Both the position numbers and the translations under genes were made by a program. Shown here piece by piece: positions 7,501-56,611 of a stretch of 64,000 nucleotides of DNA (positions are counted from its first letter, which is position 1; every line of letters begins with the position of its first letter). The notes beneath the pieces were generated by a model, which was given only the letters and a program-made list of their open reading frames with translations, had not been told where the DNA came from and made no database searches. Source of the stretch: a virus; IMG/VR virus record IMGVR_UViG_3300045988_151163, positions 10,857 to 74,856 of that record, one strand, 5' to 3'.

Positions 7501-9393
7501 CTATACCTCCCCTGGAGTATCTGCACTTAATATGTGAAGTTGCGGATGCGCGATTGTCACAGTTTTAGTATTACAATATACTAAAGTATCACAAAATCCA
7601 TATTTAGTCAAATTCTCAACAGTATAATCTGCTATTTCTATTATTGTTGCACTGAAATTATAAGTTAATCTACCAAGCTGAGTATTAGGTGATAATGATA
7701 CATTAGTCAATCTAACAATCATATTGCCCTCTTGAGTAGATTTATATACTTTTCTCTTTCCATCCATTAAGAATTCTATAACCAAATTTCTAAATTCTCT
7801 TTCTCTAATATGATCATAATGGTCTATTCTATTTTCAGTATTATAATCATCATATAACCCAGCAATTACAGTAGAACCATACATTTTCTCTCTTGATGTA
7901 AAAGTATTGTTATCATCCATATTAAAACTAATAATACCACCAATAGAGAAAGTCTTGTTTCTAGTTCCACCTGTTCTAGTGATAAAAGGATATTTACCAC
8001 CAATAGTATCGGTAATAGATTCCTGTACATTAACATTAAAATTAGAAACAGTATAATCATAAGGAATTTTTAGTTGTCTGCCATCTGCATCATATAAATA
8101 AGCATATTCATAATTTCTTAAAATAGGCTTTTCTGTTTTGTTTAAACTACTCTTTGTAGAACCATCATCTTCAATTTGTTGAATACCATATTTATACCAA
8201 ACACCACTTTCCGCAGTATTATCAAAGAAATAAAAATCTGTTTTATATTCTTCTTCAATAAAAGGTAAAGTGATAGTTTGAATAGTATCCCACATAGTAA
8301 ACTCATTGCTTTCATCTGTATCTTCATAATGAATACCAGATTTTATTCTACTATCTGCGCGGCGGACGACGTATGTTCCCGCAGTTGCAGCATTAAGGTT
8401 ACCAATATGCAAGCATACTCGCCCCTCATCTTCCTCGAGCCCGCGATCAGTTAAAGTCTTAAATTTAGAATCTGTACTATAATCAATCGTTTCTATTGTT
8501 AAAGGGTTTTCTGCAACGCCAAAAGCGGCTTTAACTTTAAAAGCAATTTCTCCAGATTCATAGTAATTTATAGTTGTATATTGTAATCCAACAGTATAGA
8601 TTGCTCCATTAACTAAAGATGTCTTAAATCTATATTTTATTTGATTTACGTCATAAAATTTACTTGCATAAATAATGTCACTATCTTCAATTTTCATATT
8701 TGAATCAATGACATTTCCTTTATATAAAGAAACCCTATAACTTCTAAGAGTTTCACTTTCGTCTATATTATAATATTTACCTAATACTTCTATTGTTTCA
8801 GAATTTACTGTATAAGTATCAGCAGAATCTCCTGTGTAATATCCAATACTAGGTATTCTAATTGTTGCTTGACCTATTGCTTTAGTAACTACTATTGTAG
8901 ACCATTCAGAAAAATTACTTGCATTTTCTGAAATCCAAGCTTGTTGTCCTTTAGTATAAGTAGTTGGATCATATTCAACCTTACTAAATCTTAATTGAAT
9001 TGAATAAATTCGACCTGGAATAAACCCACTAAAGCCTGGATAAGCAGTATCAGTTCCTTTTATATCTTCATTTAAAATCTTTGTTACGTAAACACCATCT
9101 TGTGATGTTTTCTCCCAACCCATATTAAGAATAATTCCTGTTTTTCTATAATGAATATTAGAATCTTCTTTATTAACTGCGCTTGTCGCATCTGATTGAT
9201 AAGTAACAACAGCATGTAATTTTATTGATGAATCAAATTCTATTACATTAAATTTTGATAACGAAAAATAAATATTACATGCTGGTTTGTTACCCTCAAG
9301 AGGCTGATCTGTTGCAGTATCAATAGTTTGCCAAGTAACAAAAGAAGGAGCATAACTATTGACAATGGGTGGGTATAAATCATAGCTTGCCAA
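7501..9393 (-). CDS. tail/baseplate structural protein (630 aa)
   Basis: large ORF in tail module; position only. Confidence 0.4.
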   Translation of the reverse strand: MASYDLYPPIVNSYAPSFVTWQTIDTATDQPLEGNKPACNIYFSLSKFNVIEFDSSIKLHAVVTYQSDATSAVNKEDSNIHYRKTGIILNMGWEKTSQDGVYVTKILNEDIKGTDTAYPGFSGFIPGRIYSIQLRFSKVEYDPTTYTKGQQAWISENASNFSEWSTIVVTKAIGQATIRIPSIGYYTGDSADTYTVNSETIEVLGKYYNIDESETLRSYRVSLYKGNVIDSNMKIEDSDIIYASKFYDVNQIKYRFKTSLVNGAIYTVGLQYTTINYYESGEIAFKVKAAFGVAENPLTIETIDYSTDSKFKTLTDRGLEEDEGRVCLHIGNLNAATAGTYVVRRADSRIKSGIHYEDTDESNEFTMWDTIQTITLPFIEEEYKTDFYFFDNTAESGVWYKYGIQQIEDDGSTKSSLNKTEKPILRNYEYAYLYDADGRQLKIPYDYTVSNFNVNVQESITDTIGGKYPFITRTGGTRNKTFSIGGIISFNMDDNNTFTSREKMYGSTVIAGLYDDYNTENRIDHYDHIREREFRNLVIEFLMDGKRKVYKSTQEGNMIVRLTNVSLSPNTQLGRLTYNFSATIIEIADYTVENLTKYGFCDTLVYCNTKTVTIAHPQLHILSADTPGEV

Positions 9394-13200: not shown

Positions 13201-16200
13201 AATATCTTTAGCTTCTGAGTATTTTTTACCAGATAAAGTTCTATTCTGATATGATATAATAGGTTCACTAGAAATAATGATATTTTCTTTATTGGCTTCA
13301 ATTTTACCTAAATCTAAAACATATTGTTGATTTAATTGGCCTCTTTGTTCTAGTATTTCATCAGACTCAATTTCTCTGCCGTATGAATAAAGTTTTTGCT
13401 TAAAATTAACAAAGATATTCCAAATATCAACATAATTTTTTTCCACATCATTTCCGCTTACATACTCTGTAATATTCACATAGTATCCACCTAATGTGTC
13501 TAATAACTTTTGATATTCTTCTTCTTGTTTTGCTAATTCAGCCAAATTTTCATTCTCAACTACATTTTTTAATTTAGCAGTAAAATCACTGTAATTAGTT
13601 GTAACTGTTTTATTTTTAATACTTTGATTAAAAGTATTAAAAGCATCAATAGAGCTTTGTAAAACGTTAATGTCTTTTCTAATAATAGTTCTAATGCCAT
13701 TACCATATAAAGTTGAAATTCTAGAGAAAACATCTTCAAATAAAGAAGATATAGATTCAATGTCATTTCCATCATTATATCCAATACCATAAACACTTGT
13801 CTTAGTATTTAAAACAGATATAATAATATTATTTATAATATTTAATTCATTATAAATAAAAGTATCTGCACTCTTAGAGCTGCCTATTTTAATTCCATTA
13901 GAAAGAGTTAACTCACTCATATTAGATTGAGCTGAGACATCTCTATCTAAGTTATTTATTGCGTTAATAATATTTTGTAATGCATCTATACATTCACTTC
14001 TTTTTTGAAGTTCCTCTTTACTCTGTTTAAGTAAGTATTCTATCTGATAAAGGTTACATGCTTTTAAAAATAATTCTAAATTACTATAAATTGAATTGTT
14101 CTTATCTAAAGCTTTTTGTAATTCCTCTTTCTCAGAAGTAATTTTACTTAATTTATCTTTTAATATCTTATTCTCAATATCGACTTTTACTTTAATATAA
14201 TTATAAAAATCTCCAGATTGGAAAAGAGGATTTGGTTTTGCAACAGGACACTCATTATCTTCAGAAACAGATATTTCATGTATAGTCATATTCTTATCTA
14301 AAAAGATATTACTATTTGCACTCCAAGAATAATTACATTCTTTACTATCCACTCCAATCAAATTACTTTCACATCTAAAATTCTCTGTATCATCATATTG
14401 AGGATTATTTCCCGCTGAAGTATATAATACATTATAAAAGCCACCTTCAAGTGATGGAACAAAAGATTTAAAACTTCCATCAGAAGCAAAATCCGTTTGT
14501 GGCTTTTTGATTCTAGTAATTTCAATAGGATAATCATAGTAGATATGTAAATCATTATTATAGATATTATTTAAGTCATCTGTACTTTGATCCGCAGTTG
14601 CTTTTAAATTAGATAATGAAATATTTGCCTGTACGATTATATAAGGGACATTATTTTCATTAGTCCATTGACTTAATTTATTTTTATCACTATTTGTAGG
14701 GATAATATAACAAGAGCTAGCGTCACTATCTGATATAGCGAAAGGACAAAAATATTTGTTTTCTTTCCATCCTAAGCCTTGTTTTTCTCCACTATCAAAG
14801 ATATTCCAAGATACATTAGCTTGACCTGTTTGAGAAGAAGCACTTGTATTTATCTCTTCTCCATCTTTATAGACTTTGACATTTAATCTATATAAATCAC
14901 CTTTAATATGTGAATAGTTATTGTTTGATAAAGAATAACATTTCTTTAAAGTATTACTAACTAAATCATAGATATACCAATCAATAGTACCATCATTATC
15001 TTCTACTGCAACGAAACGCATTTTTACAGGATGCTCATTACCATTATCATCAACATAAATATCTCCATAGCGATATTCCGTATCTCCAATTTTATAGGTA
15101 ACAAAAGCAGTATATTTAGTACCATTAGTTCCATTCTCACCATCTTTTGAGAATCTAATAGGCACATCTTCATATAATACTGTATTACCAAAAATAATGG
15201 TTAAACTTGAAAGACTCTGCGCGGACTTCGCGTTATAGCGGCTAGCAAGCTTGTACTGTAGACTCCTATTAGCGCCATTCCCGCGTATATAATAATAATT
15301 ATCGTCTTTTGTTATAGCAGAAGTATTATCTTGATTTATACTTTCAAAATAAACCAAATTAGGCTTTAATAAACTGTTGATTGGAACTTTCCAAACCCAA
15401 CTAACTCTATCATATTCAGCCTTAGAGATCTCTTCACCGGTGGCCGCGCTTATAATACTAAATTCAACAGGTTTAATCTCCAATTTCTGCAAACTTAAAC
15501 CATCATAATTATCACTATCTGGTGCGTCACCATCTGCATCATAGTTATAATTTACATTAGCATTATCTAAAACGACTAAGAAATCTTGCCCTTCTTTTGT
15601 TCTTATACTGATTTGTTTTGTTTCAATAGGATAAGCAGTAATTGAACCAGACGCTTGCTTCTTATTAGTATAAACGTAGACCTTAAAAATATTCATGTCT
15701 GATGTTAATGAACTTACAGGAAAACTAATTTTAGTAGTATAAATGCCATCAGTAATATTCTTATCGTTTAAAGCTATGATACTATAAAAATCGTCTTGAC
15801 TAATGATTCGACCTTGCTGGTCAATTTGCTCCCATACGTAATTTAACTCTTCATCACGAACTACATTATTATATAAATTAGGATAATTTACTTCACAAGT
15901 TAAAGTTACATTACCTACGTTTTCGAGATAAGTATTATTTTCTTTATCTGCATATAAATTAACTTCTTTAATTAAAGAATATAAATTACTTATGGTTAAC
16001 TCTCCATAGACCCATAATTGACCTTCATTAGTACCAACATAACATCTAATTTTAGATTTGTGTTTAATATCTTGATTTGAGATCGTCACCGAACCCGCTG
16101 TTGTATTAAAAACAAAAGAGCTATCATTCTGTGCTTCACCTAAAACCTCTGTTCTAGAATTTAAACATCTCCAATTCACGCCCGCAGAACGATGATAATA

Positions 16201-17426: not shown

Positions 17427-20400
17427 TTATTTTCTAATTCCGTTCTTTTGTGCTGCAATATTTTTAAGATTAAGTAAAGCTTGTTCAATTTCTGCCGCAT
17501 TGTTAGCATTAGGGAATTCTGCAACAATGTTATAAACATTATTTTCTTCTTTATTGCTACCTGTTGTTGTTGAAACAGTTTTTCCTTGACCAATTTCATT
17601 AGTCATACTAGAAAGTCTTTCTCCAACTACATCAGAAATAGCATTTTGAATTGAAGAAATAATATTTGGCATACTTCTAACAATTTTTACTGCATCTAAA
17701 ATATTTTCTGTATCAGAAGCATTTAATACAAGTTCTTTTTGATGTAAAATACCAAGTCTACCATTATCACTATCTAAGCCATCTCCTTGAGACATAGGCC
17801 AATTTCCTGTATAACCACCAGTTTTTGCTCTAAAACGATAGCCTTTCTTTTGATCTCTGGTGGAAGCAGCAACTGTATAATTAGTATATTTTCTTTTACC
17901 TTCAAGTGTTTTCGCTCTAGCTATTAGCGTTGCAATTTGCCGACCCGCAGAATCTCTTGATGCATAAGCTGTATCATCTTCAACCATAATATTTCCGTCT
18001 CCACTATTATTAACAATCCAATATTTCATTTTATTATTGGATAAACTAGCAGTGGTTGATGTTGTTCCATCATATCCTCCACCTGAGCTACCGCCGCCTC
18101 CAGAACTACCAGATCCAGAATAACTATAATCTCCATAATTTGTTGCACTACTAAAAGTAGTTTGACTAGCAGTTGCCGCAGCTTGCATCAGAGATAAATA
18201 CTGTTGAATATTGTTAATAGCATCTTTGATAGATTGAACCACACCCTCCCAAGCAGTTTTAACTTGATCAACACTATTTCTTAAATTCTCTAATTGAGAA
18301 CTACTATCTGAAGCAAGTTCAGCAGTCTTATTCTTCAAATTATCTGTCTCATCTTCTGCTCCTCTAATCGCGCCTGATATACCATCTGGTCCAAAATCTT
18401 GTCCAGCTTTATCGGCAGTGTCTGAAACTTGTTCTTCATATTTTTGAGTTGCTTCAATTAACTTATCATTTGCATCTGTAACCATAGCTTTCACGCTAGA
18501 GCCATCATCGCCAGCCCATTTCTCAATCATTTGATCTGCGGCTGCATCCCAGATACCTTTACCTTCAACAAGAGAAGATTCAATACTATCTACAATACCG
18601 TTCATATTATCTCTAACAGCATCATATATGCTATTAAAATCACTGATATTGTTATCTGTAGCTTCTTTAATTAATCTCTGCTGTTCTGATGTCATAGATG
18701 CATAAGCTTCTTCATCTTGCTTGTAGATCTCAAGAGTCAAACCTAATTGAGCTTCTTGCAATCCAGACTTCGCGGTTGCCGCCTCACTGGCATATCCCAT
18801 CGACATTTCTTGGTACCATTTATCCAGATCTGCCATCTCTTGACTGTCCGCGCCGTATTTTTCAAGATACTCTTTTTTCTTAGATAAGTATTCTTGATCT
18901 AATTTTAATAAGTTTTCAATATTAGATTGATATGCTGTTTTAGATAACTCATAAAGTTCTTTATAAGAATCTAATAACGCTTGACGCTTACTAGCAACGT
19001 CGTCTTCATCTGCAACATATTGATAAGTCCAGTTACCTTCTTGATTTCTAGTAACTTTCATTGTATTTTTACTATTTTGAGCATCTTCTAAAGCAATTTC
19101 TTTTTGAAGAATATCAAATCTAGCATTTGCTGCATCAATATCATATTGAGTTAATTGTTTCTTTTCTCTTAAAGCTTTAAGCTCTTTTTCTTGGAACTCT
19201 AACAATTTCTGTTTAGCTTTTACACTCTTGGTGTCTGTAATAGCTTGATCGACATTAGCTTTAAAAATTTCTGTATTATAAGCTTTTTCTGTTGCATCCA
19301 TATACAAGTCTGCGGATTCTTTTAATCTATCCCATTGATCTTGCATATAGTCAAGTGTTGTTCCACCAGTTATTTTTTTCTCAAGAGTATCAATAGTAGA
19401 AGAAATAGTGTTTTGATATTGGTCTTTAATAAGATTTATTCTATCAAGTACTGCGTCATTTAAGTCTTGTTCACAATCACGCATCTTTTCATATGCTTCT
19501 TGATAAGCTTCACTTTCTTCTCCATAAGATTGTTTCGCGGCTTCAGCTTGTTCTGCCCAGAACTCCTTCTGCTGTCTCAAAGATTCGATTTGAGCGCCGC
19601 TATTATTGATTTGAGCAGAATATAATTGGTCCATCATATCATATGCTTCTTCTCCATAGATTAACTCTATAAGTTCAGCTTGATATTCAAGATTGTCATT
19701 TATTCTATCAAATTCATCCATTAAGTCTTCAAACTTATCTGCAGCTTGATCAATACCATCCATATAAGCATCCCAAGCATCTTGGAACAAATCTTTCATA
19801 TCTTTAGCATGATCCATCAAATCGCTTTGAAGTTCTTTAAGTCTGTCTTGAGCCTGAGAAATTGTTTCAAACATACCAGAATAACCCGTAGTATGTAAAT
19901 TCATAATTTCTCTTTCAACTACTCCTATAGCAGCTAGATCCGCGGCAATCGTACCATTATCACCTTGATATGTACTAAATGAAGCTACTATGTTTTTGCT
20001 CTTTTTACCAAGATCTTCATATACCTTAGTGAAATCTTCTTCCATTTCCGCCAAGAAGTCTTGCATATCTCTTTCAGCTTCAGAAAAATCAAGTTTAATT
20101 TTATAATCTTCTTCAAATATAGCTAAAGTATTTTCTCTTTGTTTCTTTTCTTCTTCTGCAATCGCATCAGCGACATCTTTCATTTCATCATATAATAAAG
20201 TATCATATCTTTCAATTTGTTTCTTAAAATCTTCATATTTTTGTTTGGCTATATCCATACCAGCTTCATCTAAAGAGCCTGCATTATATGCACTAACAGC
20301 TGCATTATAAGCATTTATTTGAGCTTGATATGCTGCTTCATAGTTAGTGATCTCACCAGTATCTTTAAATGCAACTCCAAAAGATTTAAGTCTGCCTTGT

Positions 20401-41338: not shown

Positions 41339-42424
41339 TTACTTTTTGTTTCTACAAGATTTACAAATAGAATACCATCCATCTCTACTTGTCTTATTCT
41401 TTGCAAAAAAGTAGCTGTGACCTAATTTAATTTGACCGCATCTTGAACATCTTTTCCAATATCCTTTTTCTTCTTCGGTATAGTGCCAAATGAGCCAATC
41501 CATTTTAGCTTGTTCAGATAACATTTTAGGGATTTTATTTCGCCAAAGGGAAGAAATATATTCAACAGAATGTTTAATTTCAAATTCTTCGTATAATAGA
41601 TCTTGAATTTCTGCGTTTTGTTTACCATCTATTTTATATATTACTAATTTATAATATAAAGGGAATTTTTCTTTAAAAGTTCTTTCTACTAAATCATCTA
41701 AATCAACCATCATCCATCTTAAATCACTTCCAAAATTTTCATATGTTTCCTCTTTTATTTTTGAGTAATTGCATAACAAGAGAGAAACATGAAAAGGATT
41801 GATTAAAGTAATTAGACCATCGCTATAAATCTCACCTGTATCTGGGTCAATCTGGATTTTTTCCTGTAAATTTACCCGGGATATTGATTTAACTAAATTT
41901 GTGCTATACATTGGTCTGCGATAGACCTCTTTTAAAACATATTGGTCTTTTCTCATTTCAATGAGTTGTTTTTTTAAGAGATACGCGCGCTTGCCAGTAG
42001 CTGTACTAGCCTGCTTCTCTATTCGCTCTATACTCTCGCGAAGTTCTCTCAAACCGGGCACTTCCGCAATATCTTGCTCAGTAATTTCATATTTAGGTCT
42101 ATAAATAATATTCTTATCATTAGCAATCATATTATAGATGCCATCTTCGCCATTTTCAAGTTTTCCAATAAGTCCTTCAAAAGATGTCTCTCTATCATTA
42201 ACTGTTTTCATTCTGTTATCTGTTAATAATGAACTTTTTTCACCTTGTTTATTTTGCTTTCTATCTTCTTTATTTGCTGCTAATATTATATAATCTGCTA
42301 ATTTTTCTAGATATGTTGAGTTCAATCTTTCAGGAGGAGTATTGGCTATTATTTTTTTGACATGCTCTGTTCGCTCTTGTGATGATTCAAGCGAAAAGTC
42401 CATTTTTATGTAATTTTGTTCCAT
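41339..42424 (-). CDS. hypothetical protein with C-terminal Zn ribbon (first gene of leftward operon)
   Basis: CSRCGQ...CKSCRNKK; AGAAAGGAG SD; driven by promoter 42453..42481. Confidence 0.3.
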   Translation of the reverse strand: MEQNYIKMDFSLESSQERTEHVKKIIANTPPERLNSTYLEKLADYIILAANKEDRKQNKQGEKSSLLTDNRMKTVNDRETSFEGLIGKLENGEDGIYNMIANDKNIIYRPKYEITEQDIAEVPGLRELRESIERIEKQASTATGKRAYLLKKQLIEMRKDQYVLKEVYRRPMYSTNLVKSISRVNLQEKIQIDPDTGEIYSDGLITLINPFHVSLLLCNYSKIKEETYENFGSDLRWMMVDLDDLVERTFKEKFPLYYKLVIYKIDGKQNAEIQDLLYEEFEIKHSVEYISSLWRNKIPKMLSEQAKMDWLIWHYTEEEKGYWKRCSRCGQIKLGHSYFFAKNKTSRDGWYSICKSCRNKK

Positions 42425-43250: not shown

Positions 43251-44129
43251 ATGCCAGCACATGATGATTTAGGAACTAGAATGAAAACTTTCTATGAAAA
43301 CGCATCTAAAACTTACCTTATGCACAGATGTCCTGTTGCCATTAGGCTAGATGGCCGCGCTTTCCATACTTTTACAAAAGGATTTCAGAAACCTTTTGAT
43401 GAAATATTGATGAAGTCAATGCAAAAAACTATGCAGTATCTTTGTAAGAATATCCAAGGATGCGTTTTTGGATATACTCAGTCAGATGAGATTACTCTTA
43501 TATTAGTAGATTATAAAAATTTAACCAGCACTGCGTGGTTTGATTATGACGTACAGAAAGTATGTAGTATTGCTGCAAGTATGGCTACGATGATATTTAA
43601 CAAGTATTTTTATGATAATGTATTTATGTACAATGCGACTGCTGCTGTTGATTTATCCAATAAAAAATATCCATTTAAAGAAGTATATTCTAAAGCAGTA
43701 AATAAAGGTGCAATGTTTGACGCAAGATGCTTTAATATACCAAAAGAAGAAGTAGCTAATTTAATTTATTGGCGGCAGTTGGATGCTATACGGAATTCAG
43801 TCCAGGCAACCGGACAAGCAAACTTTAGCCATAAAGAGCTACAAGGCAAATCTTGCGCAGACATAAAAGAAATGCTTAAAGAAAAAGGCGTTGATTGGAA
43901 TAGTCTTCCTTTAGAGTTTCAAAGAGGCTCTTGTTGTGTAAGAAATGCTGTTGCCATAAAAAAAGAACAAGTTATTTTCCCTAGTGGGAAAAAGATGATT
44001 AGATCTATTATAGAACTTAGAGATACATCCAAGCCAGAAAAAGCTTGGATTATAGATAAAGAAATCCCTATATTTAAAGGAAAAGATAGAAAGTATATTG
44101 AAGATTTAATTTTTATTGAGGAGGAATAA
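43251..44129 (+). CDS. Thg1-like protein (tRNA-His guanylyltransferase family 3'-5' nucleotidyltransferase)
   Basis: VAIRLDGRAFHTFTKGFQKPFDE and GYTQSDEITLIL match Thg1 catalytic palm motifs (compare human VVVRLDGRNFHRF...AKPND and AYGQSDEYSFVF); WRQLD matches the Thg1 WRQ.D. Confidence 0.8.
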   Translation: MPAHDDLGTRMKTFYENASKTYLMHRCPVAIRLDGRAFHTFTKGFQKPFDEILMKSMQKTMQYLCKNIQGCVFGYTQSDEITLILVDYKNLTSTAWFDYDVQKVCSIAASMATMIFNKYFYDNVFMYNATAAVDLSNKKYPFKEVYSKAVNKGAMFDARCFNIPKEEVANLIYWRQLDAIRNSVQATGQANFSHKELQGKSCADIKEMLKEKGVDWNSLPLEFQRGSCCVRNAVAIKKEQVIFPSGKKMIRSIIELRDTSKPEKAWIIDKEIPIFKGKDRKYIEDLIFIEEE

Positions 44130-47230: not shown

Positions 47231-47641
47231 ATGTTTATGGTTTTGGAAAATGGTTGTAAGACGATTGTAGTAACAAGTATTGAGGGCTTTAATATTTATA
47301 GCTATATTGACTTTATCGAGGGACTTTGGGAGAGCGATGAGTCAGACTTCTGGGATAGTAATGGCAATGAGATTGACTTCTGGGGAACAATGGAGATGAT
47401 CGCTGGCTATCTCGATATGGGCGAAACTGTGAAAACTTCAAGCAATCCGCATGAGTTCTCATATGGCGATGATTTCTTCCTTGTTGGAGATAGTGTTCAG
47501 GCTAATATCAAGCATATCGTTGATTTTATTGCTGAAGTTATTGGAACGCATGATGAGTTTACTTGCTGGGGTTTGCTTCGTATGATTGCAATGTCTGATG
47601 TTACAGAATATACAAACAATATTCATATCAAAAGAATTTAG
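47231..47641 (+). CDS. hypothetical acidic protein (136 aa)
   Basis: SD GGAAAGAGGT 8 nt before ATG 47231. Confidence 0.55.
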   Translation: MFMVLENGCKTIVVTSIEGFNIYSYIDFIEGLWESDESDFWDSNGNEIDFWGTMEMIAGYLDMGETVKTSSNPHEFSYGDDFFLVGDSVQANIKHIVDFIAEVIGTHDEFTCWGLLRMIAMSDVTEYTNNIHIKRI

Positions 47642-47648
47642 AAAGGGG

Positions 47649-47677
47649 TTGACAAAAGTAAGAGCATATGATACAAT
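47649..47677 (+). promoter_or_regulatory. promoter driving non-coding segment 47684..47790
   Basis: TTGACA-17-TACAAT; no ORF/RBS downstream. Confidence 0.5.
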
Positions 47678-47795
47678 ATAGGTACAAACAAAAGATAGGA
47701 AGAGATAGAGGCTCACCACTCAGTTGACAGGTTATCTAATAGGTGGTCGGTTGACTGAGGAGCCGAAGCCTTCCATATGGATTTAAAAAATAGTT

Positions 47796-47824
47796 GTTGA
47801 CAAATAATAATAAATATGATATAA
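47796..47824 (+). promoter_or_regulatory. promoter driving non-coding tRNA-like segment, then gene 47980
   Basis: TTGACA-17-TATAAT. Confidence 0.5.
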
Positions 47825-47838
47825 TAAATATAGAAATA

Positions 47839-47907
47839 AGGGATAGTAGGCTAAATGGCAAACCGCTAATGCGCATAGAAACAAGAGTTCGATTCTCTTC
47901 TATCTCA
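47839..47907 (+). ncRNA. tRNA-like fragment (acceptor GGGATAG/CTATCTC + T arm AAGAG-TTCGATT-CTCTT, degenerate D/anticodon arms)
   Basis: canonical T-loop and 7-bp acceptor pairing but no foldable anticodon arm. Confidence 0.3.
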
Positions 47908-47979
47908 AGCAAGGCGAACCTAGGAATGACCTTTTGCAAATAGAATAGCTAGGATAAATAAAGGAAAGAGGTAAAAAAT

Positions 47980-48229
47980 ATGAAGAAAATCTATGTAGTT
48001 AAAGAAAAAGAACTGCTATGGGGTAAAAGAAAAAGCATATTTTACAAGCAAAGATAAATGTATCGGCTTTATTCTTGGAAAAATAGAGGATTGTAAAAAA
48101 GCTTGTGATATAAAATCTGATAAATGGGATTATGAAAACAAACACTTAAATAAAAAAGATTTGTTTAATTGGATGTTTTTTGATACGCACAATAATTATT
48201 TTATAGTATCAACTATTACAGTTTATTAA
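47980..48229 (+). pseudogene. frameshifted small Cys-containing gene (MKKIYVVKEKEL...; reading frame broken in an A-tract, continues +1 to 48229)
   Basis: SD GGAAAGAGGT; 25-aa ORF stops at 48057 while a +1 frame stays open about 75 codons from about 47999 with no start of its own. Confidence 0.35.
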
Positions 48230-48237
48230 AATAAGTA

Positions 48238-48266
48238 TTGACAAACAATAGAAAGTATGTTATAAT
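48238..48266 (+). promoter_or_regulatory. early promoter (gene 48298)
   Basis: TTGACA-17-TATAAT. Confidence 0.6.
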
Positions 48267-48297
48267 AAAAAAAAGTTAAGGAAAAGAGGTAAAGAAT

Positions 48298-48462
48298 ATG
48301 ACAATAGGAATTTTTAAAAATGGGCATGTTGATTGGTTTTATAAGTGTACTGACATTGAGGTAACAGAGGGTTTTATCAGATTTAAGAAGAATAATAACA
48401 AAGATATGCTTTGTTTCTTTTTTCGTAATATTGAAGGATATGCTATTAGGGAAGAGGTGTAG
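48298..48462 (+). CDS. hypothetical 54-aa protein
   Basis: promoter 48238..48266; SD AAAAGAGGT. Confidence 0.5.
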   Translation: MTIGIFKNGHVDWFYKCTDIEVTEGFIRFKKNNNKDMLCFFFRNIEGYAIREEV

Positions 48463-48657: not shown

Positions 48658-48843
48658 ATGAAAGTTGCAAGAAAGATTACTGTTCCAAAAAAAGAATATG
48701 AGGTTCTCGATAAATTTCTTGATATGTGTAATGAAATAGGATTAGAAACTGATGAGCTTGTTGATTTGCTTAATGCAATTTCTAATAAAGATTCAGAATT
48801 TGACTGGGCAGGGATTACATATGATATTGAGTACTTAGCTTAG
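48658..48843 (+). CDS. hypothetical 61-aa protein
   Basis: promoter 48597..48625; terminator 48842..48867. Confidence 0.55.
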   Translation: MKVARKITVPKKEYEVLDKFLDMCNEIGLETDELVDLLNAISNKDSEFDWAGITYDIEYLA

Positions 48844-48879
48844 GGGCTATATAGCCCCTAATTTTTTTACAACAAAAGC

Positions 48880-48957
48880 TTGACATATCGCGGCAGTTGT
48901 GATATAATGGAATTTTGAGATGAAAATACCCTAGAAAAAATTTTTCATTTTTCTCTT
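48880..48957 (+). ncRNA. promoter (TTGACA-17-TATAAT) followed after about 10 nt by hairpin+T-run terminator: predicted about 45-nt non-coding transcript
   Basis: no ORF; TGAAAAT/ATTTTCA stem + TTTTTCTC. Confidence 0.4.
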
Positions 48958-49048
48958 GACAAATTAAATGAAATATGATATACTGGGCGGCCCGCGCACC
49001 ATCGCAGCGGGCCGAAATATTATACCACACATGACTCAGGTTTGTCAA
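48956..49048. repeat. convergent-promoter unit U2: plus promoter 48956..48984, GC hairpin 48985..49014, minus-strand promoter 49019..49048
   Basis: TTGACA-17-TATACT; GGGCGGCCCGCG..CGCAGCGGGCCG; rc TTGACA-18-TGGTATAAT. Confidence 0.6.
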
Positions 49049-49066
49049 GACTAATTTTCAAAAAAG

Positions 49067-49113
49067 TTATCCACAATTTACTATCCCGAAATTGTGGATA
49101 ACTTTGTGGATAA
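49067..49113. promoter_or_regulatory. three consensus DnaA boxes (TTATCCACA at 49067..49075; TGTGGATAA at 49094..49102 and 49105..49113), two forming a hairpin with TCCCGAA loop
   Basis: exact match to TTATNCACA consensus, 3 copies in 47 bp. Confidence 0.5.
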
Positions 49114-50632: not shown

Positions 50633-50724
50633 TTGACAAAGTTCCTTTGATATGATATAATGGCGGCGCGCTTGCGGTTGGGGCGCGCCGCAATATTATA
50701 CCACATGTACCCGCAGTTTGTCAA
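50633..50724. repeat. convergent-promoter unit U3: plus promoter 50633..50661, GC hairpin 50662..50691, minus promoter 50695..50724; terminator 50743..50779
   Basis: TTGACA-17-TATAAT; GGCGGCGCGC..GCGCGCCGC; rc TTGACA-18-TGGTATAAT. Confidence 0.6.
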
Positions 50725-50911
50725 GACTAATTTTTGAAAAAATTGCACAAAAATTTTTCTCCCGAATTGTGCAATTTTTACGAAAAGAATCTGATAAAAA
50801 ACGCAAGAATTTTGTATCAATCCATGCTTAAAAGTAGTATTATAATACTTGTAAGGAAGAGATAACAACATGATAGTTGAAAACAAACTTCCTAAAGAAA
50901 ATAAAAAAATG

Positions 50912-50940
50912 CTTGACAAAGCAAACTAAATGTGCTATAA
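50912..50940 (+). promoter_or_regulatory. promoter followed by about 95 nt non-coding leader, then promoter 51041..51069 for the exonuclease gene
   Basis: TTGACA-17-TATAAT twice in tandem. Confidence 0.5.
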
Positions 50941-52741: not shown

Positions 52742-52770
52742 TTGACAAACAAGCCCCTATATGATAAAAT
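52742..52770 (+). promoter_or_regulatory. promoter of the two-tRNA unit; -35 in hairpin GGGGCTTG/CAAGCCCC
   Basis: TTGACA-17-TAAAAT, tRNA 5' end 13 nt downstream. Confidence 0.55.
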
Positions 52771-52783
52771 ATAATTAAGACAT

Positions 52784-52921
52784 GGGGATGTAGCTCAGTG
52801 GTAGAGCGGTGGCTCGTTAAGCCACGTCACATTGATGATACCCCTCTAAAAGCACTTTTGACTTAATCAACCAAGGGTGGGCGTTAGAGACGGGGCGAGA
52901 GTTCGATTCTCTCCATTCCCA
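52784..52921 (+). tRNA. aberrant tRNA-like gene: canonical acceptor, D, anticodon (loop UCGUUAA, GUU=Asn, C at position 33) and T arms, but a 71-nt insertion at the variable-loop position (52826..52896)
   Basis: GGGGATG/CATTCCC acceptor pairing, D arm GCTCAGTGGTAGAGC, anticodon stem GTGGC/GCCAC, T arm GAGAG-TTCGATT-CTCTC; driven by promoter 52742..52770. Confidence 0.45.
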
Positions 52922-52930
52922 ATTAAAAAT

Positions 52931-53002
52931 AGGCGTGTGGCTCAATGGAAAAGCAACGGTCTCCAAAACCGCGATTTACAGGTTCAAATCCTGTCGCGCC
53001 TG
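52931..53002 (+). tRNA. tRNA-Trp (CCA)
   Basis: acceptor AGGCGTG/CGCGCCT, anticodon arm CGGT-CTCCAAA-ACCG, T arm ACAGG-TTCAAAT-CCTGT; GGTCTCCAAAACC is typical of tRNA-Trp. Confidence 0.75.
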
Positions 53003-53036
53003 CTAATACAGTAAAAGATTGTTACCTCCTTTCCTT

Positions 53037-53075: not shown

Positions 53076-53170
53076 TTGACAAAAATTGATTTTTGTGTTA
53101 TAATGGGCGGCGCGCCATAGGTCGCGGCGCGCCGAACTTCCAGTATACCATAATCCCGGCTTTTTGTCAA
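53076..53170. repeat. convergent-promoter unit U4: plus promoter 53076..53104, GC hairpin 53105..53134, minus promoter 53142..53170
   Basis: TTGACA-17-TATAAT; GGGCGGCGCGCC..GCGGCGCGCCG; rc TTGACA-17-TATACT. Confidence 0.6.
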
Positions 53171-54946: not shown

Positions 54947-55038
54947 TTGACAAACAATAGAAAGTATGCTATAATGGCGCGGCGTGCACGCTCCTCGCAC
55001 GCCGAGATATTATACCACATAGCTCTGGCATTTGTCAA
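54947..55038. repeat. convergent-promoter unit U5: plus promoter 54947..54975, GC hairpin 54976..55006, minus promoter 55009..55038; terminator 55047..55093
   Basis: TTGACA-17-TATAAT; GGCGCGGCGTGC..GCACGCCGAG; rc TTGACA-18-TGGTATAAT. Confidence 0.6.
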
Positions 55039-55099
55039 TAGGAAAATTGCACAAATTTTTTAACCTTGTGCATCCCGAATTTTGTGCATTTTTCCGATA

Positions 55100-56341: not shown

Positions 56342-56401
56342 TTGACAAAGCACATAAAATGTGGTATAATGTCGCGGCGTTGACCACCGGGCAACGCCGA
56401 G
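56342..56401 (+). repeat. half unit U6: plus promoter 56342..56370 + GC hairpin 56371..56401, no partner minus promoter
   Basis: TTGACA-17-TGGTATAAT; GTCGCGGCGTTG..CAACGCCGAG. Confidence 0.5.
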
Positions 56402-56611
56402 TTCCCACGACCAGACCCTATATGGCTTTTTTTCCTGGTTGTTTGAAATCTGAAAACCGCCATACGGTTCCCGAAATTAGATGTTTGACTTACTTTTGTT
56501 GTGAATTTGCTCGTTTTCTATCTGAAACGTAAAAATATCCGTCAGAATAAAAAATGGCTTACTGTATCGAATTACAGTGATTCTATTGATAAATGCCTCA
56601 GCGCATCTCTC

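Follow-up and report, generated by a model that had tools for sequence, protein, structure and literature searches.

Positions 47649 to 47979 of the DNA analyzed here, a 64,000-nucleotide window of phage sequence (positions 10,857 to 74,856 of IMG/VR record IMGVR_UViG_3300045988_151163), on balance probably constitute one conserved non-coding leader cassette of the phage early region, in which tandem promoters and an RNA hairpin (element 1) are combined with the relic of a transfer RNA (tRNA) gene (element 2). The source is an uncultured human-gut phage of approximately 140 kb. A preliminary description of the locus had proposed two consecutive promoter-driven small RNA (sRNA) genes, the second yielding, for example, a tRNA-like decoy or primer. 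Both segments are indeed promoter-driven, non-coding, and structured, but a reading as two stand-alone genes is not supported, since no terminator follows either promoter. The locus should be annotated as a tRNA pseudogene or tRNA-like element together with a structured 5' leader, neither protein-coding nor a pair of sRNA genes. It would then present the case of a phage tRNA gene that is dying, its promoter and acceptor/T-arm half persisting in the leader of the early genes downstream and its decoding half decaying independently by two routes.

The Conserved Cassette

A segment of approximately 330 nucleotides, extending from about 12 nucleotides upstream of the first promoter (P1) to the ribosome-binding site (RBS) of the following gene, is present in 20 other gut-metagenome contigs, which bears out the conservation in relatives that the preliminary description had suggested looking for. 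Relatives were drawn from IMG/VR, from JGI and ENA metagenomes, and from ENA/Logan assemblies, the last by way of the 136-amino-acid protein encoded upstream and its homologs, and together they give 12 distinct versions of the cassette. Statistics of variability for the promoters, the spacer, the hairpin, and the acceptor/T-arm half refer to an alignment of nine versions, and identities of the cassette leave out the D/anticodon part of element 2. So defined, the nine aligned versions are 94.3–98.3% identical to the window, whereas the DNA around the cassette in the same contigs is 82–88% identical and the identity of the upstream protein falls to 50–53%. At least five unrelated genes follow the RBS among these contigs, and two different contexts precede P1. 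The combination of high identity within the cassette and differing genes on its flanks marks it as a conserved unit in a mosaic neighborhood. Beyond this group, the cassette was absent within 10 kb of the Thg1-like gene in 80 more distant relatives, and scans for exact patterns, run on IMG/VR, JGI metagenomes, and GTDB genomes to find distant copies of the hairpin, returned close copies only. Matches in L082, L084, L086, and L093 were rejected as chance similarities in unrelated DNA. The features of the cassette are listed in Table 1.

Table 1. Features of the leader cassette, in window positions.
Feature	Position	Strand	Description
P1, sigma-A-type early promoter	47649..47677	+	TTGACA-17-TACAAT, 11/12 consensus match, TG extension
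Element 1, 77-nt imperfect RNA hairpin	47698..47774	+	29 pairs (8 G.U), 4-nt bulge ACCA, apical loop AAU
A/U-rich unstructured spacer, hairpin to P2	47775..47796	+	7 of 22 columns vary; no U-tract terminator
P2, perfect consensus promoter	47797..47825	+	TTGACA-17-TATAAT, 12/12 consensus match, TG extension
Element 2, 68-nt tRNA relic (long allele)	47840..47907	+	Rfam RF00005, 40.2 bits
Conserved 54-nt leader, tRNA relic to RBS	47908..47961	+	Weak hairpin possible at 47914-47937
RBS AAAGGAAAGAGGT and ATG of downstream early gene	47962..47982	+	End of cassette; following gene differs among relatives

The tRNA Relic

Element 2 is a homolog of tRNA, with a score against the Rfam tRNA family well above the gathering threshold of 29 bits (E = 5e-5 for the 64-kb window). 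The acceptor and T-arm module reported in the preliminary description (GGGATAG...AAGAG-TTCGATT-CTCTT-CTATCTC) is found at 47840-47906. Its acceptor stem has 7 bp and is followed by the discriminator A; no CCA is encoded, as is likewise true of the tRNA-Trp in the window. The same description had denied the segment a proper D arm and a proper anticodon arm, and only the latter part of that statement stands. A D arm is present (GGCU/AACC, three of four pairs) along with U8, A14, G18, G19, and A21, and further along the molecule carries G26, a four-nucleotide variable loop, and the T arm AAGAG-UUCGAUU-CUCUU with G53-C61. Only the anticodon arm is faulty: it has a 3-bp stem (CUA/UAG) instead of 5 bp, the loop AUGCGCA, and C at position 37. 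With its default settings ARAGORN does not pick up element 2; relaxed settings call it tRNA-Arg(gcg). With a 3-bp anticodon stem element 2 cannot decode; in addition, neither the length nor the sequence of the loop is conserved in orthologs, and six of the 12 versions have no D arm, hence no complete cloverleaf. Element 2 is a relic of a tRNA gene and not a decoder. What it retains is a minihelix made up of the 7-bp acceptor stem, the 5-bp T stem, and the UUCGAUU loop, situated 54 nucleotides upstream of the RBS. In a search of 47400-48300 against Rfam with E values up to 10, nothing but tRNA was matched, and no Y-RNA or YrlA family appeared. Comparison with annotated phage tRNAs gave generic T-arm matches only and was set aside.

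The two halves of the relic have fared differently. The 17 nucleotides of the T arm are invariant in the 12 versions, and in 11 of them the only changes in the acceptor stem replace C with U, or the reverse, opposite G (GC/GU); the exception is L106. The pattern suggests ongoing selection on the acceptor/T-arm half. The alignable D/anticodon region, by comparison, is more variable than the remainder of the cassette (7 of 14 columns vs. 20 of 128, p = 0.006) and comes in two forms, each found in six of the 12 versions. The long allele, carried by the window, has a 7-nucleotide loop, AUGCGCA, in the window, L092, and L106 and an 8-nucleotide loop in the other three versions (AAUGCGCA in L087 and L105, AAUACGCA in L102); its anticodon triplet is GCG in some versions and ACG in another, and the ortholog in L087 scores 43.9 bits as a tRNA (RF00005). 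The short allele is 49 nucleotides long (GGGAUAUGCUGGUGCAUAUGAAAC, continuing into the T arm and acceptor strand that it shares with the long allele). A net deletion of 19 nucleotides has removed its D arm, but it keeps a 5-bp stem, AUAUG/CAUAU, around the 6-nucleotide loop CUGG(U/C/A)G, in which the former anticodon reads GGU, GGC, or GGA; the copy in L083 reaches 15.1 bits (RF00005). Single-nucleotide indels occur in both alleles.

Each allele therefore retains a part that is missing from the other. An in-silico chimera of positions 1–26 of the long allele, the anticodon arm of the short allele, and the shared 3' part is recognized by ARAGORN as a tRNA at default settings, and the addition of one loop nucleotide turns it into tRNA-Thr(GGT). 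Since the alleles complement each other in this way, the simplest reading of the sequences is that one ancestral full tRNA gene was damaged twice by independent deletions and has drifted since. No relative with an intact tRNA at this locus is present among the 20 contigs.

Several other unusual members of the tRNA family occur in the window and in its relatives. A 138-nucleotide tRNA-family gene on the plus strand at 52784-52921 scores 55.3 bits in Rfam and is missed by ARAGORN; its acceptor, D, and T arms are normal and its variable region contains an insertion of approximately 66 nucleotides. The anticodon loop of this gene is UCGUUAA in the window vs. a 6-nucleotide AAGGUC in the close relative L001, the insertion being nearly identical in the two. 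The gene is absent from L087, where the promoter -10 element directly abuts tRNA-Trp. The tRNA-Trp(CCA) itself (52931-53003, plus strand) has an A27.C43 mismatch, leaving a 4-bp anticodon stem, in the window and in L001, whereas L087 has A27-U43. Anticodon stems of 4 bp have been linked to UGA reading in tRNA-Trp(CCA) (PMC13092985); in phage tRNAs they have been associated with resistance to nucleases (PMC12445682). In L070 and L071, a 65-nucleotide tRNA-like sequence at 14970-15034, just upstream of tRNA-Met, has a miniature arm of 4 bp and three loop nucleotides (UUCA-AUA-UGAA). ARAGORN reports 'tRNA-???' with a two-base anticodon, i.e., a 6-nucleotide loop, at 5164-5234 of L055 and 3809-3879 of L059. 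Among more distant relatives, L053 carries, in a tRNA cluster, a GOLLD RNA (18714-19166, 188.6 bits) immediately ahead of tRNA-Asn, and L043 a cyclic di-GMP riboswitch of the c-di-GMP-I class (7806-7879, 62.3 bits), which makes this phage group rich in structured RNAs near tRNA genes. That anticodon-defective tRNA-like sequences recur in a clade that always encodes a Thg1-like enzyme is no more than a lead to a possible link.

The Leader Hairpin

Element 1 is a genuine plus-strand RNA hairpin that is kept as a structure. The imperfect inverted repeat with two TTGAC motifs noticed in the preliminary description turns out to be its core: the two motifs are direct copies of GUUGAC, and they can form a stem because GUUGAC is self-complementary when G.U pairs are allowed. 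From the outside inward, the hairpin consists of an outer stem (GGAAG.G/C.CUUCC), a second stem (GGCUC/GAGCC) with the ACCA bulge, and an inner part in which a 10-bp stem (CUCAGUUGAC/GUUGACUGAG), a 1x1 mismatch, and an 8-bp apical stem lead up to the loop AAU. The 5' arm includes a purine-rich tract resembling a Shine-Dalgarno (SD) sequence (AGGAAGAG, AGAGG) that is not followed by a start codon. The minimum free energy of the plus strand is -31.8 kcal/mol (z = -3.9), and none of 200 shuffled sequences folds as well, so that the structure prediction proposed in the preliminary description agrees with its reading of the repeat. The minus strand reaches -21.4 (z = -1.3), and the ortholog in L087 shows the same asymmetry (-36.9, z = -5.1, vs. 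-22.4, z = -1.5, for the other strand). The asymmetry arises because eight of the pairs are G.U, which argues for a structure of RNA and not of DNA.

The pairing is maintained through substitutions. In eight distinct sequences each of the 232 pair cells holds a standard pair. Variation affects seven of the 29 pairs, and every one of the seven stays paired, two by compensated changes and five by switching between Watson-Crick and wobble pairs. Pair 47722/47756 is found as A-U, G.U, and G-C across relatives, and pair 47700/47772 changes from A-U to G-C in two of them. Observed values are reached in 7 of 500 column shuffles, and in a control in which partners were slid by one to three columns 28–51% of the cells were paired, with no compensation. 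The unpaired nucleotides are invariant except in L105. Variable columns number 7 of 77 in the hairpin against 25 of 127 in the cassette background (p = 0.05). Substitutions that preserve pairs and a strand-specific fold are what a structured RNA motif would display, although the close relationship of the sequences keeps the support modest and makes the conservation of pairs supportive, not conclusive. No Rfam family matches the hairpin. A covariance model searched against the window and 1.55 Mb of related phage DNA detected no further copy, and a 24-mer from the hairpin is without an exact counterpart in 185,579 genomes of bacteria and archaea. It appears to be a small, uncatalogued, clade-restricted leader motif. 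The hairpin is not a terminator, since no U tract follows it.

Promoters, Read-through, and Coding Potential

The promoters that the preliminary description placed near 47649 and 47796 are both of high quality, and transcription from P1 is expected to start near 47684. Both hexamers of P1 are invariant and 7 of its 17 spacer positions vary; none of the 17 spacer positions of P2 does. The -10 element of P2 is weakened to TATATT in L099. In the window it ends 14 nucleotides before G1 of the tRNA-like element, the same geometry as that of the promoter at 52742-52770, which ends 13 nucleotides before the tRNA-family gene at 52784. On account of this likeness, P2 looks like the promoter of the former tRNA gene. 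A promoter without an open reading frame (ORF) is nothing special to this locus, as other tandem consensus promoters with non-coding spacers of 70–120 nucleotides recur in the region (near 50913/51041, 52190/52281, 55100/55209/55302, and 56612/56770).

No terminator-like site was detected on the plus strand between 47007 and 48840, and the first terminator after both promoters is at 48840-48861. Both promoters should consequently read into the gene at 47980 and on to that terminator, which places the two structured segments among the leader elements of an early operon and not among stand-alone sRNA genes. Read-through of this kind, giving a simple long 5' leader, was the outcome that the preliminary description had named as fatal to its proposal. 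It is indeed what the sequence predicts, but the tRNA-shaped segment could still be excised by ribonuclease (RNase) P and RNase Z. The weak hairpin between the relic and the RBS (GCGAA..AGG-AAUGA-CCU..UUUGC by RNAalifold) tolerates the substitutions seen in it, a C-to-U change at 47915 leaving a G.U pair and a change at 47927 falling in the loop; thermodynamic support for the fold at 47914-47937 is not significant.

The non-coding nature of both segments is borne out by the absence of any RBS-preceded ORF within 47641-47980. The minus-strand ORF at 47736-47939, already described as lacking an RBS, encodes 67 amino acids and was considered as a type I toxin for its hydrophobic stretch. It was rejected on three grounds: its sequence is that of the AT-rich P2 read as the reverse complement, an RBS is missing, and in relatives the 19-nucleotide indel shifts its frame. 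The same indel breaks a plus-strand ORF of 49 amino acids, and a 20-amino-acid ORF starting with TTG inside the hairpin is altered by non-synonymous changes and in L083 has no stop codon left; both were dismissed. Three further candidates fared no better. The two TTGAC motifs have no usable -10 element 16–18 nucleotides downstream and cannot serve as additional -35 boxes; a predicted long-range helix (47791-47798/47944-47951) is broken by a G-to-T change in L102 and L105; and pairing of 47929-47935 with the RBS as an anti-SD sequence has an energy no better than that of shuffled sequences.

Proposed Working of the Cassette

In the proposed scheme, P1 and P2 would act as tandem early promoters for whichever small early gene follows. 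Transcripts from P1 would begin with the 77-nucleotide hairpin as a cis-acting leader element, serving either as a stability element comparable to a 5' stabilizer or as a processing site for a double-strand-specific nuclease. Purine-rich, SD-like tracts without a start codon serve as 5' stabilizers in mRNAs of Bacillus, and the tract of this kind in the 5' arm is the ground for the first possibility. Double-strand-specific processing sites occur in early transcripts of the Bacillus phage SP82. The 12-bp stack of acceptor stem and T arm is the minimal substrate of RNase P and RNase Z. Since this half survives in 11 of the 12 versions, the relic is probably still recognized and excised, by RNase P at 47839/47840 and RNase Z at 47907/47908. 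These cuts would yield a hairpin RNA of approximately 155 nucleotides, a tRNA-like RNA of 68 nucleotides, and an mRNA starting at 47908.

Several observations tell against this account of the locus. The conservation of the cassette could in part reflect recent exchange between phages instead of selection. In L106 a change of G1 to A breaks pair 1-72, and over the T arm and acceptor stem together the variability (3 of 35 columns) is not significantly lower than that of the background (25 of 127; p = 0.20). Folding of the short allele gives no stable minihelix. Compensation in the hairpin concerns two pairs only, in closely related sequences, and the processing by RNase P and RNase Z, like any function of the hairpin, is something that we only infer.

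Alternative Explanations

The alternative of a functional product, in which the tRNA-like RNA is an anticodon-less mimic made early as a decoy or sponge for a host nuclease that targets tRNA, as a sponge for some other tRNA-binding factor, or as a substrate of the Thg1-like enzyme, is regarded as unlikely. It would account for the faster change of the D/anticodon part (p = 0.006) by an arms race, and it is in keeping with a perfect and invariant P2, with a T arm that is the same in 12 versions, and with an acceptor stem that in 11 of them varies only between GC and GU. Other tRNA-like sequences with defective anticodon arms exist (52784-52921 in the window, 14970-15034 in L070, and the 'tRNA-???' calls in L055 and L059), the window (43251-44129) and at least 256 relatives encode a Thg1-like protein, and resistance to the P2 OLD nuclease is documented for phage tRNAs whose anticodon stems are shortened (PMC12445682). 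Fast change, however, fits neutral drift equally well, pair 1-72 is lost in L106, the P2 of L099 is weakened, folding of the short allele is poor, and the Thg1-like gene is found in hundreds of relatives that have no cassette. Decay is preferred because the damage is ongoing and because two structurally different alleles are hard to fit to one binding partner. For similar reasons the 'decoy or primer' of the preliminary description is disfavored, the D/anticodon part decaying in two ways and the loop sequence not being conserved. An extended form of the idea, that the clade deliberately keeps strongly expressed anticodon-defective tRNA look-alikes (element 2, 52784-52921, and those of L070, L055, and L059) as early anti-defense decoys or Thg1-like substrates, with the hairpin as a co-processed partner RNA, is quite unlikely.

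Two independent trans-acting sRNA genes, each with its own promoter and a defined 3' end, are also an improbable solution. Both elements do have strong promoters of their own, and the hairpin is conserved, structured, and invariant at its unpaired bases in all but one relative. Neither element is followed by an intrinsic terminator, the transcript from P1 includes P2, the region has many tandem promoters set apart by short non-coding spacers, and the covariance search for a second copy of the hairpin in 1.55 Mb of related phage DNA was negative. Alternatively, the cassette might act as DNA, as an operator, a site of replication or recombination, or that part of a phage attachment site which matches a tRNA; we hold this to be very unlikely. 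The direct GTTGAC repeats and the inverted repeat could bind a protein, and the cassette sits at mosaic junctions between different genes, yet 8 of the 29 hairpin pairs are G.U, which would be mismatches in DNA and on the other strand, and the fold is specific to the plus strand. As for an attachment site, a scan of 185,579 genomes of bacteria and archaea yielded no exact copy of the 25-mer spanning T arm and acceptor strand (AAGAGTTCGATTCTCTTCTATYYCA), which leaves it without a host tRNA to match, and element 2 brings its own 5' acceptor strand. Finally, it is extremely unlikely that element 2 is a working tRNA, for example tRNA-Arg(GCG), with a short anticodon stem as a guard against host nucleases that attack the anticodon arm. 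The window copy has a 7-nucleotide loop with U33 and intact tertiary-core nucleotides, and relaxed settings of ARAGORN produce the corresponding call; stems of 4 bp are known in functional phage tRNAs (PMC12445682). The stem in question is one pair shorter still, at 3 bp, and C occupies position 37; the loop is eight nucleotides long in L087, L102, and L105, GCG changes to ACG, and half of the orthologs lack a D arm. To our knowledge, no functional bacterial-type tRNA has a 3-bp anticodon stem. The reading as a leader cassette with a tRNA relic is therefore retained.

Relation to Known Systems

The closest counterparts of element 2 are the tRNA genes and pseudogenes of phages (RF00005), with which it shares a score above threshold, a cloverleaf with canonical acceptor stem, GG in the D loop, and the T loop, as well as a promoter of its own 14 nucleotides upstream, the lack of an encoded CCA, and a position among small early genes. 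It departs from them in its 3-bp anticodon stem, its unconserved loop, and the loss of the D arm from half of its orthologs. The mascRNA of MALAT1 is a tRNA-like processing signal, and the t-elements of plant mitochondria are tRNA-like processing signals as well (PMC1920247). Like these, element 2 is tRNA-shaped, has a degenerate anticodon region, and lies beside an mRNA, so placed that RNase P and RNase Z could set transcript ends. The known examples come from eukaryotes or organelles and have experimentally demonstrated cleavage, whereas cleavage of element 2 is something we infer, and selection on its minihelix is not statistically separable from the cassette background.

Phage tRNAs that resist the P2 OLD nuclease (PMC12445682) resemble element 2 in having fewer than five anticodon-stem pairs, as does the tRNA-Trp of the window with its 4 bp; they differ in keeping 4 bp, a normal loop, and decoding, where element 2 has 3 bp and a drifting loop. 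YrlA, a bacterial Y-RNA-like tRNA mimic, has also been reported in some phages (PMC4201824). Element 2 likewise is a non-coding RNA that imitates acceptor, T arm, and D arm without anticodon function, but it has no Rfam match to Y-RNA or YrlA (E up to 10) and no long Ro-binding stem enclosing the tRNA-like part.

For the hairpin, the nearest parallels are found in Bacillota. The early regions of the Bacillus phages SP82 and SPO1 carry RNase III sites, and mRNAs of Bacillota carry 5' stabilizers or STAB-SD leaders. The early region studied here is similarly dense in consensus sigma-A promoters, and its leader contains an irregular hairpin of more than 20 bp and a purine-rich SD-like tract without a start codon. 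The likeness is one of layout and not of sequence, and cleavage or ribosome binding at the hairpin is putative.

Phage and Genomic Context

The cassette and the adjoining gene are identical on an ENA contig of 140,206 bp (ERZ27260846 k119_208837). The G+C content of the phage is approximately 30%. Structural genes occupy the minus strand from 1 to 42.4 kb, including those for terminase and portal and two ORFs of 2384 and 2886 amino acids, and very small genes make up the plus-strand early region from 43 to 57 kb. Each of these early genes has an RBS of the form AAAGGAAAGAGGT and a promoter approximately 32–45 nucleotides upstream; on the plus strand of this region approximately 34 promoters match TTGACA-17-TATAAT with at most one mismatch. 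The host of the phage uses Bacillota-type promoters and ribosome-binding sites. The nearest named phage is phAss-1, with a portal identity of 40%, for which its authors proposed a host among the Clostridia (PMC10607447). A sigma-factor-like protein (phrog_5767, E = 2.7e-46) is encoded on the minus strand at 41339-42424, the boundary between late (minus-strand) and early (plus-strand) genes, and its position suggests that late transcription depends on a phage sigma factor and that early genes are transcribed from host sigma-A promoters. The Thg1-like protein, a tRNA-His guanylyltransferase/3'-5' polymerase (phrog_4717, E = 4.5e-82), is encoded nearby on the plus strand, and its gene is kept in at least 256 IMG/VR phage contigs of 90–200 kb.

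The gene that follows the cassette in the window (47980-48229, plus strand) is frameshifted. Its ORF of 25 amino acids stops at 48055-48057, and a clearly protein-like reading goes on in the +1 frame to 48229, the break lying near the A-rich run GGGGTAAAAGAAAAAGC. As the sequence through this run is present in two independent assemblies (L090 and L091), the break is not a one-off sequencing error. The gene has no homolog in any of the loci retrieved.

A second non-coding cassette is present in five copies in the early region, at approximately 48956-49110, 50633-50790, 53076-53170, 54947-55095, and 56342-56470. It consists of a consensus plus-strand promoter with, directly behind it, a GC-rich hairpin, the stems of which differ among copies yet stay complementary, followed by a minus-strand consensus promoter that points back at the hairpin. 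In some of the copies an inverted repeat around CCCGAA comes next, either TTGCACAA...TTGTGCAA or, at 49068-49110, TTATCCACA...TGTGGATAA, which resembles DnaA boxes.

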